Below are positions 52,643 through 59,377 of a stretch of 64,000 bases of DNA, in pieces. Source of the stretch: an uncultured Granulicella sp. (lineage in GTDB: Bacteria; Acidobacteriota; Terriglobia; Terriglobales; Acidobacteriaceae); NCBI GenBank assembly GCA_903932155.1, contig CAIZFH010000285.1, forward strand, positions 1,351-65,350, read 5' to 3'. The notes below the pieces were generated by a model. It searched no databases. It worked only from the letters and a program-made list of their open reading frames with translations, and was not told where the DNA came from. Every line of letters starts with the position of its first letter. Positions within the stretch are counted from its first letter, which is position 1. The position numbers were made by a program, and so were the translations under genes.

Positions 52643-53686
52643 ATGCTGCTTGAAGGACTGTACATCCCGCTGACCACCCCCTTCCATACGGATGGACGGC
52701 TTAATTTGCCCAAGCTGGCCGCTAACGTCGCGCGCTATACGAAGACTGCCGCTGCGGGAATGATTGTCCTCGGTGCGACCGGCGAACCGACTCTGTTGAG
52801 CGACGAGGAGACGCACGATGTGCTGCACGTTGTCGCACAGACCGCCGAGGCGGAGAATGTTCTTATCGTCGGCGTCTCCCGTGATAGCGTCCGCGCCACG
52901 CTCGCACTGGCCGAACTCGCCGCCGAGATGCTGTACGACTCGATCCTGGTCGGAGTGCCAACTATTCTGGCCGGCAAAGACGATAGCCGCGAGCTTCTGC
53001 TCTACTTCCAGGCTGTCGCCGACCGGACACCTCTGCCGGTCGTGCTGCTCAGCGACGCTGCGCGACGCATTCCGATAGACGCCATCGTAGAGCTTGCCGC
53101 CCATCCTCATATCCTCGGGATGATGGTCAATGCTGGCAGCCCTGCGGAGATCGAAGCCATTCTGCGTCGCACCTCCGACATCCGCCGCGAAGTGGTCGTT
53201 ACGCCTGTGTTCAGCGCTGTTACTGCGCGCATGAAGGCCGCTGCTAGCCCCCTATCGGCAACCTTCCTCTCCGCGAATTCACTTACCGTGAATCTGGCCT
53301 CATCGATCGTATCGCCGCCTTCGCCTCCAGCCCTGCGGTCGCGCACAAAATCTGTTGGCTTCCAAATCCTGACCGGCAATACCCAAGCAATCCTCGACGG
53401 TCTGCGCGCCGGTGCTTCAGGTGCCGCGCCTGCTATGGCTGCGTGTGCTCCGCAGGCTTGCTATGAGGTGCTGGCCGCATGGAAGGATAACGACCAGCCG
53501 CTGGCCGAAGAGAAGCAAGACCGCCTGCGCGTTGCCTCGCGCCTGTGCGAAGCAGGAATCGGCAATCTGAAGTATGCCTGTGAGTTAAACGGCTACTTCG
53601 GCGGCCGGCCGCGCCTGCCGCAGCTTCCGCCCACGGGCGAGCAACGCGCCGCTCTTGAGCAGTGGATGACGCTACTTCGCAACTAG
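52643..53686 (+). CDS. DapA/N-acetylneuraminate lyase family protein, apparently lacking the catalytic lysine
   Basis: LYIPLTTPF..GMIVLGATGEP matches the DHDPS N-terminus. By eye alignment to E. coli DapA, K161, Y133 and Y107 are replaced. Carries a low-complexity insert. Confidence 0.65.
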   Translation: MLLEGLYIPLTTPFHTDGRLNLPKLAANVARYTKTAAAGMIVLGATGEPTLLSDEETHDVLHVVAQTAEAENVLIVGVSRDSVRATLALAELAAEMLYDSILVGVPTILAGKDDSRELLLYFQAVADRTPLPVVLLSDAARRIPIDAIVELAAHPHILGMMVNAGSPAEIEAILRRTSDIRREVVVTPVFSAVTARMKAAASPLSATFLSANSLTVNLASSIVSPPSPPALRSRTKSVGFQILTGNTQAILDGLRAGASGAAPAMAACAPQACYEVLAAWKDNDQPLAEEKQDRLRVASRLCEAGIGNLKYACELNGYFGGRPRLPQLPPTGEQRAALEQWMTLLRN

Positions 53687-53826: not shown

Positions 53827-54768
53827 ATGTCCATTGAACCTGTCCGTGTCGCCCTGATCCAGATGGCCTGCGTTGCCTCCGTGGCGGAAAACCTCGACCA
53901 CGCTGCCGAGATGGTACGCCAGGCCGCACGCGATGGAGCGCAGATCGTCTGCCTGCCCGAGCTCTTCCGTGCGCAATACTTCTGCCAGCGCGAAGACCAC
54001 CGTCTATTTGCGCTGGCCGAGTCGATCCCCGGCCCTTCGACAGCACGTCTTTCCGCAGTCGTACGAGAGGCGAAAATCACGCTGATCGCCTCCCTATTCG
54101 AGCGGCGCGCGCCCGGCATCTACCACAACACGGTCGCTGTGCTCGACCACGCATCAGCCGAGCCCGACAACATCGCCGGCCTCTACCGTAAAATGCATAT
54201 CCCAGACGACCCGCTATATTACGAGAAGTTCTACTTCGCTCCCGGCGATCTGGGCTTCCGCGCCATCCCCAGCAGCCACGGTCCAATCGGAGCTTTGATC
54301 TGCTGGGACCAGTGGTTTCCAGAGGCAGCACGGCTAACCGCGCTGATGGGTGCCGAGACGATTTTCTACCCCACAGCTATCGGCTGGCACCCCAGCGAGA
54401 AGGCGGAGTTCGGCACGGCGCAGTACTCGGCATGGAAGGCCATCCAGCGCGCTCACGCCATTGCCAACGGAGTCTTCGTCTGCGCCGTCAACCGCGTGGG
54501 CCACGAGCACGGCGACGTTCTGCTGGACGGAATGGAGATTCAAGGCCCCGGCGACCACACGCCAGCGAATGGTATCGAATTCTGGGGCGGCAGTTTCATC
54601 TGCGACCCCTTCGGGCGCATTCTGGCGCAGGCATCTCATAACCAGGAAGAGATTCTAACCGCTACGCTCGACTCCGCGCTTGTGGAGACCACGCGCCAGC
54701 ACTGGCCGTTCTTACGCGACCGCCGCATCGACGCCTACGCCAACATCACCCGTAGGATGCTGGATTGA
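53827..54768 (+). CDS. aguB: N-carbamoylputrescine amidase (carbon-nitrogen hydrolase family)
   Basis: [25 protein letters not shown] and [12 protein letters not shown] motifs. Strong SD TAGGAGGA. Confidence 0.85.
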
Positions 54769-54800
54769 TTGCAAACCAAGAATCGCGAGTTGAGGACGAG

Positions 54801-55217
54801 ATGAAGAGTCATACCGAGTACCTGGTCTTTGAGACGAAAAAGCATAGGGAAATGGTCCATATTACCGACGAAGTGGAGCGGATTGTGGAACGCAGCGGTG
54901 TGCGGGACGGCTTGTGCTTTGTATCGCCGATGCACATTACGGCGGCGGTGTATGTGAACGACCTCGAGAACGGATTGATCGAGGACATCGGGAAGTGGCT
55001 GGAGGAGTTGGCGCCTGCGCGACTGGAGTACAAGCACCACAGGACTGGCGAAGACAACGCAGATGCGCACCTGAAGTCGCTGTTGCTGCATCACGAGACA
55101 ACCATGCCGGTGACCAATGGCCGACTGGACCTGGGCACATGGCAGCGCGTCTTCTATGCCGAGTTCGACGGCCAGCGCCGCAAACGCGTAATTGTCAAGG
55201 TACTGGGCGTGGAGTAA
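54801..55217 (+). CDS. yjbQ: YjbQ/UPF0047 family (secondary thiamine-phosphate synthase-like)
   Basis: [24 protein letters not shown] and [18 protein letters not shown] motifs. Start ATG 54801. Confidence 0.85.
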
Positions 55218-55412
55218 GTGGTGGAACGTACAGATTCCGTGATGCTTGAACTAACCCCCGTATGTAGAAGCGGCATCCGAACATTTACGTCTCCAAATCG
55301 AGACATAACGTGCCTGGATTCGCGATTCATTACAGGCATCTGCTCACATTTGACGCGATAGTACAGCGAGTCTACGCTTTGGGTGGAGTGGAAATTAGAT
55401 CGGGAATTCAGG

Positions 55413-56555
55413 ATGAGAGAAACCTTGATTGACAGCATGAAGCATCATAATTCCGCCGCGGAAACGAGGCGTCATCTCTTCTATGAAACCTCGCATTCAC
55501 CGGCCCTTGCAGACCTGGTAGGGTACGAAAAAGCCAGGGATATCGTTGACTTCTGTTTCATAGCCAACCCCTATTACCCAACCCGCGAGATGTTGGAGGA
55601 CATGCAGAATAGCCTGCCCAACCTGATCAAATCCTACCCTTCTAGCAATCCGATACTGAGCCAGAATAATCTGGCGGCGGTCCTGCATGTCGATCCAGAA
55701 AGGCTGATCATCGGCAACGGAGCGACAGAACTGATCGCCCTGATGGATATGACTTTAATTGACCGTATTGGAATACCTATTCCCACATTCGGCGAGTACA
55801 TCGAAAAAATGAAGGACATGCGGAACGCCGAATTGTACTCGCTCGATCCGGGTCAACGGTACAAACTGCATCTAGATGACTATCTAGCCTGGGCACAGGC
55901 GCGAAAGCTGGCATGTCTGCTGGTAATCAATCCGGGTAATCCGACGGGGCAATTCATTCCGTTCGAAGAAATGGTGGAGTTTCTGCAGCAGGCTCGCGAT
56001 CTGGAACTCGTAATCGTTGACGAATCATTTATCGATTTTGCAGGCGACCCTGTTCCGAGTTTGCTTCCGATTGCCGACCAATTTACGAATCTGCTGATTG
56101 TTCGCAGCATGAGCAAGCATTGCGGCGTTCCTGGATTGCGCCTGGGTTACTGCTATAGCGCCAATCTGTATATTCTTAACCGCTTGCGCCGTTTCGTGCC
56201 CACCTGGAATTTAAATACTTTGGCGCAGTATTTTCTTTCTCTTCTTCTCGACTCCGATGACGTCTATCACCAGTGCCGTAAGAGGTTGATAGGGGACGTC
56301 AGTTGTCTATACGAAGCTCTGCTTACAATCCCTGGCTTGGACGTCTATCCTACCGGCGCAAACTTCGTGCTCTTCAAAATCAAAAATGGAATGACTGCTA
56401 CAGAACTCCAAACACGACTGCTGGTCGAGAACGAAATGTATGTACGCGACTGCTCGAATAAGCTTGGCATGGACATGTCACATATCCGCGTTGCATCACA
56501 GGGCCGCGAGAAGGATGCCCGCCTGGTGGAAGCGCTGCGGAGTATCTTCCTATGA
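55413..56555 (+). CDS. class I/II PLP-dependent enzyme (HisC/CobD-like aminotransferase or decarboxylase fold)
   Basis: NPGNPTG and SMSKHCGVPGLRLGY (PLP lysine). Low GC (~48%). Start uncertain (GTG 55383, ATG 55413, ATG 55437). Confidence 0.8.
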   Translation: MRETLIDSMKHHNSAAETRRHLFYETSHSPALADLVGYEKARDIVDFCFIANPYYPTREMLEDMQNSLPNLIKSYPSSNPILSQNNLAAVLHVDPERLIIGNGATELIALMDMTLIDRIGIPIPTFGEYIEKMKDMRNAELYSLDPGQRYKLHLDDYLAWAQARKLACLLVINPGNPTGQFIPFEEMVEFLQQARDLELVIVDESFIDFAGDPVPSLLPIADQFTNLLIVRSMSKHCGVPGLRLGYCYSANLYILNRLRRFVPTWNLNTLAQYFLSLLLDSDDVYHQCRKRLIGDVSCLYEALLTIPGLDVYPTGANFVLFKIKNGMTATELQTRLLVENEMYVRDCSNKLGMDMSHIRVASQGREKDARLVEALRSIFL

Positions 56556-57286
56556 AGCGCCCCATCGTTGTTGTCTGCTCCCGTCAAACAACTCGGAAAA
56601 ACAAACTCATCGATTACGTCGGCGAGTTGCATCTAGAGCTTCTAATCAATTTTCATACTCTGCCAGTTATTGTCCCCGTCGTAGCTGGCACTCCTGATTG
56701 CCTGCCCCAATACATGGAGTCCATGAACGGGCTCTTGCTAGTGGAAGGAGATGACGTTGAACCGAAACGATATGCGGCTCGGAAAACCAACTTTCAGTAT
56801 CTTGAAAAGACGCATCCCCTGAAAGACGAAATTGAGATATGCCTGCTACACCATGCATTACTTCGTAAGATCCCCGTTCTGGGAATATGTCGCGGATCGC
56901 AATTGTTGAATGTGGTATGCGGCGGTACGCTATTCGGCGATGTACAAAAGGAAACAGGCTCGAATCGTCCACATATCGACTATCAGAATTACGACACGTA
57001 CAGGCATCCCGCTTATGTAGTTCCCGGCACGCCGCTGGCACGCTGGTATCGCAGGAAAACACTGTCTGTGAACAGCTATCACCATCAGGGAATTCGCAAG
57101 TTGGCGGATCGCTTCCGTCCTATGGCGTATGCAGATGACGGTTTGATCGAAGCCTATCATGATCCTGAATCTGCCTTCCTGGTAGGACTTCAATTTCATC
57201 CCGAACGCATGTTGAACGAATATGCTGGGAATTTGAAGGTGTGGAAGGCTTTCACCTCTGCGGTGCATAACACTCAAAAGCTATAG
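56552..57286 (+). CDS. class I glutamine amidotransferase-like hydrolase, peptidase C26 / PuuD (gamma-glutamyl-GABA hydrolase) family
   Basis: GICRGSQLLNV (Cys nucleophile), NSYHHQGI, GLQFHPE. ATGA overlap with the upstream PLP gene. Low GC. Confidence 0.8.
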   Translation: MKRPIVVVCSRQTTRKNKLIDYVGELHLELLINFHTLPVIVPVVAGTPDCLPQYMESMNGLLLVEGDDVEPKRYAARKTNFQYLEKTHPLKDEIEICLLHHALLRKIPVLGICRGSQLLNVVCGGTLFGDVQKETGSNRPHIDYQNYDTYRHPAYVVPGTPLARWYRRKTLSVNSYHHQGIRKLADRFRPMAYADDGLIEAYHDPESAFLVGLQFHPERMLNEYAGNLKVWKAFTSAVHNTQKL

Positions 57287-57304
57287 TCGCTCGCGTGACC
57301 GCTC

Positions 57305-59311
57305 TTACCGCGTCGCCGTTGCCTCGTCCTTGTAGAACTCGGCGATCTCAGCGGCGTATTTCTTCTCCACCACGCGGCGCTTCAGCTTCATGCTGGGGGT
57401 GAGTTCGTCGGTCTCCACGGTCCACTCATCGGGAACCACAGCAATGCGTTTGATCGTCTCATAGGGTGCCAGCGTTGCATTCAGCTCATCGACGATGCGC
57501 TGGTAGCGCGCCACCACTTGCGGCACCTGCACCAGCGCCTTGCGATCGCCTGCAGGGTAGACGACGCCCTTCACCCGCGCCCAGTTCTCAAGGATGGCGA
57601 AGTTGGGCGATATAAGCGCGCAGGCGAACTTGTGCTTATCGCCGACCAGCGCGGCGTTGCCCACCAACATGTGGGCCTTCAGTTTGTTCTCGATCGGCTG
57701 CGGAGCAATCATCTTGCCGCCGCTGGTCTTCAGCATCTCCTTCTTGCGGTCGGTGATGGAGAGGAAGCCGTCGGCGTCGATGTGACCAATGTCTCCGGTG
57801 CGAAACCACCCATCCACTGTGAAGGCATGCGCCGTCTCCTCTGGCTTGTTCCAGTAGCCGCGGAAGACCGAAGGTCCGCGCACCTCCAGTTCGCCGTCCG
57901 GCGCGAAGCGCACCTCGACATTCTGTAGCACCGGCCCCACCGTTCCGATGCGATAGCGCAGCGGATCATCCACCGCAATCAGCGGCGAGGTCTCGGTGAG
58001 TCCATAGCCCTCGAAGATGCGAATCCCCACGTCGGCGAACCAACCTGCCGTATCCATTCCCAGCGGCGCGCCACCCGAGACGAAGAACTTCACCTTCCCG
58101 CCAAACGCCGCGCGAATCTTGGAGAAGACCAGCTTGTCTGCTATATATTGCGACCATTCTTTTACAGCAGCATAGACCGTATAAGACAACAAGCCTGCCA
58201 GACAGAAGATAAAAACAAGCGAGACCGTAAGGGTCAAGCGGTCGTGCTGCCCTGTTTTAATGCTCCTGAAAATATTGAACAACCAGAAAAACAGGAATAG
58301 TCCCCATAGAAGACGACCAACCCTGTGTAGATTTATCCATCGTGAAGATCGCTTCCCTGCCATCGTCTCGTCTCGATGACTTCGCCCAACGCGGAGCGCC
58401 CAGTTAAGAATAATTTTCTTTGCACCGTGCGACTTGCCCTCGATGCTCTGGCGGATCTTCTCATAGACACGTGGCACGGCCACCAGCAGCGTGGGCCGCA
58501 CCTGCTTCATCGCCGTGGCAATCTGGTCGAACTTAGGACAGTAGGCCAGTGTCACGCGCTCGTTCATCAGCGCGTAGTCCAAGTGGCGCGCCGTGACATG
58601 GGAGAGCGGAAGAAACGAGATGCAGCTATCCTCCTCGGTAAAGCCAAAGGGCCGCGTCGACAAGGTGAAATTGCTTGCCAGGTTGCCGTGGGTCAACATG
58701 ACGCCCTTGGGCTCGCCAGTGGTGCCAGAGGTGTAGATGATGGTTGCCAGATCCTCTGGTTGCACAGAGCGCGCCCGCGCGTCGAAATCCTCGTCACGCG
58801 CCTGCATTGTCTCCGCATTTTTCATCAATTCTGTAAAACTCTCTACCGGGAAAGGATATCCCGCGCCTTGATTGTGAGAGGTTGGTTCATTCATCACCAC
58901 CACGCGTTCAAGCGCTGGCAACTCGCCCGCCTCGCGCAGCTTCTCCACCTGCTCCCACGACGAGACCACGGCAACCTTCGCGCCGGAGTCGCGCAACATG
59001 TACCCCACTTGTTCCGGAGTCAGCGTCATGTAGAGCGGCACATCGACCGCGCCCAGCGCCAGCACGGCGAAGTCCGTCACCGGCCACTCCCAGCGGTTCT
59101 CGCTGACGAGCGCCACGCGATCGCCCTTAGCTACTCCCCATGCCTCCAACCGCGCCGCCAGCGCGCGCACCCGGCCATAAGCCAGCGCCGCCGTAATCGG
59201 CTTCCATTCGCCATCCACCCCCACGCTCGCGTCCAACCACCGCCAGACCACCTTGTCGCCACGTCCGCTCACCTTCAGAAACGCGTCGTTGATCGTCCTG
59301 ACATCCTGCAT
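57305..59311 (-). CDS. long-chain fatty-acid--CoA ligase (AMP-forming, FAA1/COG1022-like) with an internal two-helix hydrophobic insertion
   Basis: IIYTSGTTGEPKGVMLTH, GYGLTETS, WFRTGDIG, and a C-terminal TPSMKLKRR. Start ATG 59311. Confidence 0.85.
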   Translation of the reverse strand: MQDVRTINDAFLKVSGRGDKVVWRWLDASVGVDGEWKPITAALAYGRVRALAARLEAWGVAKGDRVALVSENRWEWPVTDFAVLALGAVDVPLYMTLTPEQVGYMLRDSGAKVAVVSSWEQVEKLREAGELPALERVVVMNEPTSHNQGAGYPFPVESFTELMKNAETMQARDEDFDARARSVQPEDLATIIYTSGTTGEPKGVMLTHGNLASNFTLSTRPFGFTEEDSCISFLPLSHVTARHLDYALMNERVTLAYCPKFDQIATAMKQVRPTLLVAVPRVYEKIRQSIEGKSHGAKKIILNWALRVGRSHRDETMAGKRSSRWINLHRVGRLLWGLFLFFWLFNIFRSIKTGQHDRLTLTVSLVFIFCLAGLLSYTVYAAVKEWSQYIADKLVFSKIRAAFGGKVKFFVSGGAPLGMDTAGWFADVGIRIFEGYGLTETSPLIAVDDPLRYRIGTVGPVLQNVEVRFAPDGELEVRGPSVFRGYWNKPEETAHAFTVDGWFRTGDIGHIDADGFLSITDRKKEMLKTSGGKMIAPQPIENKLKAHMLVGNAALVGDKHKFACALISPNFAILENWARVKGVVYPAGDRKALVQVPQVVARYQRIVDELNATLAPYETIKRIAVVPDEWTVETDELTPSMKLKRRVVEKKYAAEIAEFYKDEATATR

Positions 59312-59377
59312 GCAAAGCCCTCCAATCACTGCCCGGAAATGGCCCCATCCAGCCTACGCCGGCTAAATGCAAACGAA

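Follow-up and report, generated by a model that had tools for sequence, protein, structure and literature searches.

What does a two-gene segment of low guanine-plus-cytosine (GC) content do in the genome of an uncultured Granulicella sp., and how long has it been there? The segment lies at positions 55218 to 57304 of the window, the whole 64,000-nucleotide (nt) stretch of DNA that we analyzed (contig CAIZFH010000285.1 of assembly GCA_903932155.1), and window positions serve as coordinates throughout. Two intact open reading frames (ORFs) on the + strand occupy it, the first encoding a pyridoxal phosphate (PLP)-dependent enzyme and the second a putative gamma-glutamyl-amide hydrolase of family C26; we refer to the two genes with their predicted promoter as the cassette. 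Comparison with the organism's own genome (G000; 3.88 Mb in 319 contigs, 97.7% complete) and with homologous loci elsewhere suggests that the pair is a functional unit, that the cassette is a rare accessory element settled at its present site for a long time, and, as a tentative reading, that its enzymes may take consecutive steps on an amino compound bearing phosphate or phosphonate.

The arrangement of the two genes is the first evidence that they belong together. As the original prediction had it, the stop codon of the PLP gene and the start codon of the C26 gene overlap in the sequence ATGA, which is predicted to couple their translation. A survey of one genome per prokaryotic species found at least 552 loci with a close relative of the PLP enzyme, and in the best 80 of these, which supplied the neighborhoods analyzed here, the PLP gene is followed directly by a C26 gene in 77, mostly across a gap of 3 to 12 nt as judged by the ends of high-scoring segment pairs. 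The exceptions are two Chloroflexota loci and one contig end. The genes also stand side by side in 11 of 12 genomes from nine phylum labels, and both proteins have thousands of relatives at about 75 to 88% identity in soil, peat, and lake metagenomes, many of them on the same contigs. In addition, at least three natural proteins carry both domains in a single chain, in the order PLP domain, linker of ~25 amino acids (aa), and C26 domain. P0241 (632 aa) and P0242 (622 aa), which share 62% identity, were found with a query of both proteins joined end to end, and P0244 (614 aa), together with a fragment, P0248, by an exhaustive representative search. The fusions share 54 to 60% (PLP) and 44% (C26) identity with the window proteins; a metagenome scan for further fused genes returned only unfused pairs, from high-GC genomes. 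Adjacency in 77 of 80 loci and the existence of fusions exclude chance adjacency, the outcome that the original prediction had named as speaking against it, and on sequence grounds the pair is a functional unit.

The unit appears to consist of these two genes and no others. All-against-all clustering of 1171 flanking ORFs yielded no third conserved gene, the next-largest cluster being present in only 9 loci, and the recurrent neighbors are lineage-specific housekeeping genes (gap-pgk-tpi, the his operon, the homoserine dehydrogenase gene hom, rpoD, polA, and the type II glutamine synthetase gene, GSII). Across the 77 loci, the neighborhood of the pair shows no conserved glutamine-synthetase-like ligase, oxidase, or aldehyde dehydrogenase, and a search for defense systems with PADLOC gave no meaningful match (best E 0.0095 over 40 residues). 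At two loci from Schlesneria (Planctomycetota), the gene directly after C26, in convergent orientation, encodes a type II glutamine synthetase (L075:10219-11244, with a matching gene in L077); though gamma-glutamylation would need a glutamine-synthetase-like ligase, this gene is probably the housekeeping GSII. The fused genes have direct same-strand neighbors seen once each, a HAD-family hydrolase on the P0242 contig (Logan SRR26421364) and a PNPOx-like protein beside P0241 (L117:1974-2396). At three Acidobacteriota loci of one lineage (L026, L032, and L079), the cassette lies four genes from hisG-hisD-hisC-(HAD)-hisH, placing a true hisC within 5 kb of the cassette PLP gene, a proximity that could mislead automatic annotation.

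Matches to Pfam, NCBIfam, and Protein Data Bank (PDB) entries bear out the predicted folds of both proteins. The PLP protein belongs to Pfam family PF00155, Aminotran_1_2 (E 4.6e-34; 118.6 bits versus a cut-off of 19.7). Its homologues are almost all 376 to 382 aa long, and a GTG at 55383, given as the start in the ORF list, is too near the promoter box; the start is therefore placed at the ATG at 55413, and the GTG is probably too early. The protein retains His28 in a T-S-H-S-P motif, Asn176, Asp203, the Schiff-base Lys235 (codon 56115-56117), Arg243, Arg345, and Arg359. Lys235, Asp203, Asn176, and Arg243 align with their counterparts in SeCobD and 6OUX and are at least 97% conserved in 81 family members, and Arg345 and Arg359 correspond to the arginine pair with which CobD and HisC hold the phosphate of their substrates. 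Yet the protein falls below the equivalog cut-offs of both CobD (TIGR01140; 185.6 versus 290.55 bits) and HisC (TIGR01141; 177.7 versus 276.55 bits). A genuine HisC, scoring 291 bits and thus above its cut-off, is encoded elsewhere in G000 (contig C266) and is 25% identical to the cassette enzyme, and G000 gave no match to CbiB (PF03186) where control genomes gave the expected ones. As judged from these comparisons, the cassette enzyme is neither the HisC of G000 nor a cobamide CobD.

Relatives of the PLP enzyme point instead to a group of decarboxylases acting on phosphorylated or phosphonylated amino acids. The best solved relative is PDB 6oux, a "threonine phosphate decarboxylase-like enzyme" (E 2e-53; residues 6-379 against 3-389, including the SHSP arm), and a RefSeq "norcobamide biosynthesis serine-O-phosphate decarboxylase," encoded beside cbiB, is 32.7% identical over its full length. 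Full-length similarity, a (T/S)-S-H-S-P arm, and the arginine motifs YVRDxxNK and HIRxA place the cassette enzyme in what we informally call the 6OUX-type clade. In a library of 1.84 billion proteins, the next relatives after the fusions described above are proteins of ~600 to 620 aa with an N-terminal MobA-like nucleotidyltransferase (NTP_transf_3), such as P0250 (40% identity) and P0254 (37%), and P0284 (849 aa) joins a GHMP-kinase domain to a PLP domain 32% identical to the cassette enzyme; the motif T-S-H-S-P-S is common to all three. A kinase or cytidylyltransferase fused to the PLP domain implies substrates that carry phosphate or phosphonate, and the cassette enzyme is therefore placed, by sequence relationship, in a putative phospho(no)-amino-acid decarboxylase clade. 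Within it, decarboxylation appears somewhat favored over transamination. A T-S-H-S-P-S-type PLP domain is joined to a MobA-like nucleotidyltransferase or a GHMP kinase in many uncharacterized proteins, P0250 and P0254 being ~620 aa long. The PntC-AEPT fusion was considered as a model for the nucleotidyltransferase-fused relatives and rejected, as the aminotransferase domain of Tde1415 is PhnW-like rather than CobD-like. Another relative of the PLP enzyme lies on an Erwinia rhapontici plasmid (L136) beside genes for a CDP (cytidine diphosphate)-alcohol phosphatidyltransferase, two HAD phosphatases, an SDR protein, and an ATP-grasp protein.

The C26 protein is a member of Pfam family PF07722, Peptidase_C26 (E 3.8e-50; 171.1 bits versus a cut-off of 20.5), and also matches the class I GATase family PF00117 (E 1.2e-14; 55 bits). 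Its triad comprises Cys113 in the motif GICRG (codon 56888-56890) and His216 and Glu218 in LQFHPE (57197-57205), at least 97% conserved across 74 family members, which share the further motifs HIDYxNYDxYRH and NSYHHQ. Solved relatives are PDB 3fij (Lin1909), 7d4r (SpuA), and 6vtv (PuuD). PuuD is also the best named model (NF008471; E 1.8e-25), with a score of 89.8 bits that lies below the equivalog cut-off of 266, and Cj1417 (NF045546; E 8e-13) gives a partial match of 48.9 bits against a cut-off of 250. Neither cassette protein has a signal peptide visible by eye, and both should therefore be cytoplasmic. Among the closest relatives of the cassette C26 domain, the representative search also returned P0246 (503 aa), which has two tandem Peptidase_C26 domains (314 bits over two stretches).

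How the cassette is distributed argues that it is not part of the core genome. It is present in 2 of 25 genomes of the genus, G000 and one other (G016, sister in the tree to Granulicella aggregans M8UP14, a cultivable carrier at locus L020), and in 3 of 301 genomes of the family from 142 genera (~1%); among 401 genomes drawn evenly from the phylum, G000 alone has it at close similarity. The placement of G016, with 82% identity between flanking proteins of an "uncultured Acidobacteriaceae" locus and proteins of G000, makes Granulicella in the GTDB sense the probable genus. Carriers among the 80 loci are mostly Acidobacteriota, with some Gemmatimonadota and Planctomycetota. The protein tree likewise consists mostly of Acidobacteriota rows, among which the Gemmatimonadota (99% support) and Planctomycetota (98%) are nested as single clades, plus single rows from other phyla, for which the phylum label of a lone contig from a metagenome-assembled genome (MAG) may be a binning error. 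As the Gemmatimonadota and Planctomycetota copies form nested clades and lie on long contigs with GC matching the host, transfer across phyla is real. A contig from a "Candidatus Saccharimonadales" MAG (L060), whose gene order and sequences match several Acidobacteriota loci (clusters c3, c5, c11, c6, and c7), was probably binned to the wrong organism. Horizontal acquisition, suggested originally from base composition, thus holds in one respect: by its absence from 23 of 24 other genomes of the genus and its unrelated contexts elsewhere, the cassette is a rare acquired accessory element, as far as its distribution can tell.

Composition alone would suggest a recent arrival, and here the evidence is otherwise. 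GC is 0.47 to 0.51 at 55200-57200 and 0.57 to 0.62 in the flanks (sliding 400-nt windows), so that the predicted drop across 55218-57300 is present and the flanking level of 62 to 65% given with it was slightly high. The 2087 nt from the yjbQ stop to the fadD stop (55218-57304) have a GC of 0.497, a value as low as which occurs in only 28 of 6607 windows of that length in G000 (0.4%; mean 0.593, standard deviation 0.028), and GC at third codon positions (GC3) is 0.585 in the PLP gene and 0.518 in the C26 gene versus 0.735 to 0.755 in the aguB-like, yjbQ, and fadD genes. However, four metagenome contigs (L108-L111) have the same gene order: M16 peptidase, pilin-like protein, LolA, HAD, DHDPS-like (dihydrodipicolinate synthase-like) protein, aguB-like, yjbQ, PLP, C26, fadD, and ugd. 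Protein identity between these and the window is 87 to 88% for the PLP enzyme and 81 to 85% for the C26 enzyme (aguB-like, 87 to 88%; yjbQ, 91 to 94%; ugd, 89%), and the low GC of the cassette is kept (0.50 to 0.53 versus 0.59 to 0.62). Synonymous divergence (dS) is 1.3 to 2.1 in the cassette and 0.8 to 1.5 in the flanks, and the ratio of nonsynonymous to synonymous divergence (dN/dS) is 0.04 to 0.07 (PLP gene, 0.04; C26 gene, 0.06 to 0.07) and 0.02 to 0.09, respectively. A shared insertion site and dS above 1 mean that the insertion in this lineage is old, which contradicts recent acquisition as an origin of the composition, and the divergence pattern indicates that the cassette is held under purifying selection since its insertion between yjbQ and fadD in an ancestor of the lineage. 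In the other 77 loci, cassette GC tracks host GC (r = 0.80) with a mean deficit of 2.5 points, and 70 of the 77 cassettes lie below their host (Wilcoxon p = 2e-12).

What, then, might the cassette do? We propose that it would work as a self-contained accessory operon, in which a sigma-70-type promoter belonging to the cassette would drive two translationally coupled genes at their site between yjbQ and fadD, and that its two enzymes would take consecutive steps, in either order, on one small cytoplasmic molecule. The C26 enzyme would hydrolyze the gamma-glutamyl amide bond of a conjugate to release glutamate and an amino compound, and the PLP enzyme would convert that amino compound or its precursor, an amino acid with a terminal phosphate or phosphonate, by decarboxylation or, less probably, transamination. 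Decarboxylation of such an amino acid is the likeliest reaction because the nearest relatives are a serine-O-phosphate decarboxylase and domains fused to cytidylyltransferases or GHMP kinases. In acidic organic soils, such a pathway could serve to salvage, break down, or detoxify a gamma-glutamylated phospho- or phosphono-amino compound. We hold this account of consecutive action tentatively, at slightly less than an even chance, and prefer it to each of the others considered below.

Several observations weigh against it. The unit contains no gamma-glutamyl ligase, so any conjugate would need to be supplied from the surroundings or made by a host enzyme, and at the surveyed loci no conserved transporter, ligase, kinase, or regulator adjoins the pair, nor is there a riboswitch. 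The fusions fit an ammonia-channeling amidotransferase complex equally well, AlphaFold2 modeling of fused P0241 (predicted template modeling score [pTM] 0.55) predicted no defined contact between the domains, and the two Chloroflexota loci have a PLP gene without an adjacent C26 gene. The genuine HisC of G000 scores 174 bits on the CobD model as well, and the models therefore cannot separate a decarboxylase from an aminotransferase. The GC deficit of 10 to 11 points in the window's lineage is the most extreme case among the loci and is not accounted for by recent arrival. Finally, we found no publication on the PLP-C26 pairing, in agreement with the earlier remark that it is not a described operon.

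Other explanations account for part of the same evidence. The two proteins could instead constitute one glutamine-dependent enzyme, in which the C26 subunit, as glutaminase, passes ammonia to the PLP subunit as nucleophile, for instance to replace the phosphate of O-phospho-serine or O-phospho-homoserine and produce a diamino acid. Coupling of translation at 1:1, the single-chain fusions (an arrangement typical of amidotransferase-synthase pairs), the match to PF00117 with the Cys-His-Glu triad kept, and the lack of a ligase to make a gamma-glutamyl conjugate would all suit such a complex, and GntC, which an NCBIfam match places in the same PLP family, does beta/gamma chemistry. Against this stand the 171 bits to Peptidase_C26 versus 55 to GATase, the closest solved relatives SpuA and PuuD, which are free-standing gamma-glutamyl-amide hydrolases, and the AlphaFold2 model, in which the domains do not pack with confidence; moreover, we know of no ammonia-using reaction among CobD/HisC-type enzymes. 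We regard the complex as unlikely. The closest characterized relatives of the PLP enzyme produce amino-alcohol phosphates, and a biosynthetic unit can be envisaged that supplies the head group of a lipid or polysaccharide. By decarboxylating O-phospho-L-serine or O-phospho-L-threonine, its PLP enzyme would make phosphoethanolamine or aminopropanol phosphate, and its C26 enzyme would have a supporting role, for instance in recycling or unmasking. This would agree with relatives fused to cytidylyltransferases and kinases, with the CDP-alcohol phosphatidyltransferase and HAD phosphatases beside the Erwinia plasmid relative, and with the sugar-nucleotide genes beside the cassette in the window. 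But the 77 loci have no transferase, cytidylyltransferase, glycosyl, or lipid gene alongside the pair, the polysaccharide genes of the window are a lineage-specific flank, and a strictly co-inherited and sometimes fused C26 enzyme is left with no defined job, which makes head-group synthesis distinctly unlikely.

The remaining alternatives concern neighbors, origin, and chance. A link to polyamines had been read from the neighboring aguB, implying a Puu-like route in which gamma-glutamyl-amines are trimmed before a PLP step on the amine. PuuD is indeed the best named model for the C26 enzyme, and a CN-hydrolase with an aguB-like profile is encoded two genes upstream (53827-54768). Its score on the N-carbamoylputrescine amidase (AguB) model, 280 bits, is below the cut-off of 410, however, leaving the AguB assignment insecure; the gene belongs to the host flank, being found with the cassette in the window's lineage alone and missing from its surroundings at the other 77 loci; no PuuA, PuuB, or PuuC is encoded nearby; the C26 enzyme is itself far below the PuuD cut-off; and the PLP enzyme falls in the phospho-amino-acid decarboxylase clade rather than the class III type of amine transamination. 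The polyamine link finds no support in these comparisons, and such a route is highly improbable. Recent transfer of a young genomic island from a low-GC donor would explain the 11-point GC and 15- to 23-point GC3 deficits, the absence of the cassette from most of the genus, and the long terminal branch of the window copy (0.23). It is very unlikely all the same: lineages with only 78 to 86% flank nucleotide identity share both the insertion site and the low GC of the cassette, synonymous divergence is saturated, mobility genes and terminal repeats are lacking, and the nearest tree neighbors are Acidobacteriaceae copies at 0.53 to 0.61 GC. That ordinary housekeeping genes, hisC or cobD plus puuD, lie together by chance would match the automatic annotations of homologues ("histidinol-phosphate transaminase," "threonine-phosphate decarboxylase," and "PuuD"), and is refuted by the tests run, as every equivalog cut-off was missed, the true HisC lies elsewhere and CbiB is lacking in G000, and a pair found in ~1% of the family is adjacent at 77 of 80 loci and occurs fused.

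The promoter lends further support to a cassette that moves as a whole. A box TTGACG-N17-TACGCT had been predicted upstream of the PLP gene; it is present there (Table 1) and is homologous to one conserved in related loci. In 12 loci of the closest clade, a strict regular expression, TTGACGC-N16-18-TA(T)AGGCT, located the box at -60 to -67 relative to the start codon, and further boxes were recognized by eye in L006/7/10, L013, L019, and L023, including a Rhodanobacteraceae contig. Upstream similarity among the closest-clade loci ends a few bases 5' of the -35 element. While the window box is weak when taken alone and absent from the output of a consensus promoter scanner, its conservation across loci supports it, and by homology it is a copy of a conserved cassette promoter, predicted to be of the sigma-70 type, that travels with the cassette. 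The leader shows no sign of regulatory structure: fold z-scores for the window and four homologous leaders range from +1.7 to -1.3, none of them significant, and with no Rfam match at E up to 1 the leader does not qualify as a riboswitch or the mark of a leader-controlled operon.

Table 1. Features of the cassette and its immediate flanks, in window coordinates
Feature	Position	Strand	Basis
yjbQ (UPF0047), left flank, outside the cassette	54765..55217	+	Pfam, NCBIfam
Variable lower-GC spacer from yjbQ stop to cassette promoter	55218..55349	+	blastn match to L108-L110 begins only at 55341
Predicted promoter: -35 TTGACG, 17-nt spacer, -10 TACGCT	55350..55378	+	Sequence; homologous box in related cassettes
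Leader, ~30 nt, purine-rich GGGAAUU stretch before ATG	55379..55412	+	Sequence
PLP enzyme gene, 380 aa, CobD/SMUL_1544 (6OUX) type	55413..56555	+	Pfam, NCBIfam, PDB match, motifs
ATGA overlap (C26 start ATG, PLP stop TGA)	56552..56555	+	Sequence
C26 (class I glutamine-amidotransferase fold) putative gamma-glutamyl-amide hydrolase gene, 244 aa	56552..57286	+	Pfam, NCBIfam, PDB, motifs
Spacer, 18 nt, to stop of convergent fadD-like gene; cassette end	57287..57304	.	Sequence
FadD11-like long-chain acyl-CoA ligase, right flank, outside the cassette	57305..59329	-	Pfam, NCBIfam

The borders of the cassette carry no trace of a mobile element. Flanking or terminal repeats do not exceed chance length, no integrase, transposase, or other mobility gene is found among the cassette neighbors, and the cassette does not qualify as a classical mobile element or genomic island. 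Plasmids and viral contigs hold no close copies, only relatives at 34% identity or less. The spacer upstream of the promoter could not be aligned by blastn with the closest syntenic relatives (L108-L110) and has no Rfam match; 3' of the C26 stop, there is no terminator-like site in the window and no shared element, the downstream sequences of 70 loci being unrelated. Both flanking genes belong to the host lineage, yjbQ adjoining the cassette nowhere but in the window's lineage, L108-L111 (it has other neighbors in relatives from the genus), and the fadD-like gene being syntenic with the cassette only in those contigs. An empty insertion site could not be demonstrated, with yjbQ adjoining neither aguB nor fadD in 21 relatives from the genus.

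The flanks have features of their own. Sugar-nucleotide and polysaccharide genes lie beside the cassette in the window as part of the lineage-specific flank. In the fadD-like gene, L108, the nearest syntenic relative, aligns on both sides of 58145-58355 (- strand) with ~29 nt in place of that segment; the ligase has 605 aa in L108 versus 674 aa in the window, and GC dips to 0.52 at 58000-58400. From this alignment, the segment is a window-specific in-frame insertion of ~69 codons in the putative acyl-CoA ligase. The DHDPS-like protein (52643-53686) matches the DapA profile only in its first ~178 residues and is the least conserved product of the syntenic block, at 69 to 70% identity to L108 and L111 versus 87 to 94% for its neighbors.

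The novelty of the cassette lies in an undescribed combination of two known folds, each protein falling short of the equivalog tests for CobD, HisC, PuuD, and Cj1417. The combination is widespread even so, with thousands of protein clusters (~80% identity) in soil, peat, and lake metagenomes, more than 550 species-level genomes containing a close PLP relative, copies across phyla, and independent gene fusions. That a rare accessory unit is so strongly conserved suggests that it performs a specific chemistry on which selection can act in acidic organic soils. A bolder reading, which we consider unlikely, is that soil and peat bacteria possess an undescribed partnership of a C26 amidohydrolase with an SMUL_1544/FrbH-type decarboxylase for processing gamma-glutamyl-conjugated phosphono- or phospho-amino compounds, encoded on a promoter-bearing cassette that spreads between phyla. 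If true, its purpose could be to scavenge phosphorus and nitrogen from organophosphonates or to disarm phosphonate or phosphinate antimetabolites that are glutamate analogues. The carriers, Acidobacteriota, include some of the least-studied abundant bacteria, and with two genes, or one where they are fused, the system is an easy target for expression and substrate screening. A practical consequence concerns annotation, since the three names attached automatically to homologues are probably wrong for thousands of database entries.

Comparison with known systems sets the pair apart from each of them while supplying a logic for it. The L-serine-O-phosphate decarboxylase of norcobamide biosynthesis (SMUL_1544 type; we take PDB 6OUX to be SMUL_1544 itself) aligns with the cassette enzyme over its full length and shares the N-terminal S-H-S-P arm, the PLP lysine, and both arginines. 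Identity is ~33 to 37%, however, and the known enzyme is encoded in a cobamide cluster by cbiB and is not known to be paired with C26, whereas G000 lacks CbiB. Salmonella CobD (L-threonine-O-3-phosphate decarboxylase; PDB 1LC5 and 1LC7) and HisC have the fold, the PLP-binding residues, and the two phosphate-binding arginines in common with the cassette enzyme, which scores as neither and is only 25% identical to the real HisC of G000. The second domain of FrbH is reportedly a CobD-like decarboxylase. Proteins that join such a domain to a MobA-like nucleotidyltransferase, in the FrbH-like architecture of the FR-900098 phosphonate pathway, or to a GHMP kinase share the motifs T-S-H-S-P-S, DFC(F/Y)xxNP(Y/F)(Y/F)PT, and YVRDCxNK with the cassette enzyme at 37 to 40% and 32% identity, respectively, but their partner domain is a nucleotidyltransferase or kinase and not a C26 hydrolase. 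FrbH is a PF12804 enzyme acting on L-2-amino-4-phosphonobutyrate (PMC6697681).

On the hydrolase side, PuuD of Escherichia coli and SpuA/PauD2 of Pseudomonas, which hydrolyze gamma-glutamyl-gamma-aminobutyrate and gamma-glutamyl-polyamines, resemble the cassette C26 enzyme in family, Cys-His-Glu triad, and size; the cassette enzyme differs in its low PuuD score, in lacking Puu or Pau partner genes, and in the motif HIDYxNYDxYRH, which marks a separate subfamily. Cj1417, the gamma-glutamyl-CDP-amidate hydrolase of the Campylobacter O-methyl-phosphoramidate pathway, is also a C26 enzyme, and its gamma-glutamyl substrate carries a phosphoryl group, from which it follows that the family can handle phosphorylated glutamine derivatives. 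The match to Cj1417 is weak and partial, though, and the cassette includes no glutamine kinase or cytidylyltransferase.

For the pairing itself, the original prediction had invoked Puu catabolism and plant GGP1 with SUR1. In glucosinolate formation (GGP1 and SUR1) and in mycobacterial ergothioneine formation (EgtC and EgtE), an amidohydrolase strips off a gamma-glutamyl group and thereby prepares the substrate for a fold-type-I PLP enzyme; SUR1 and EgtE are C-S lyases, and EgtC is an amidohydrolase of the N-terminal nucleophile (Ntn) type. The analogy fails in its particulars, as the cassette PLP enzyme belongs to the CobD/HisC branch, its relatives are phospho(no)-amino-acid decarboxylases rather than C-S lyases or amine transaminases, and nothing indicates thiol-conjugate chemistry. 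As a generic model, in which a gamma-glutamyl group is removed and a PLP step follows, it nonetheless remains the best available, and it is this logic that the cassette would share with the plant and mycobacterial pairs.

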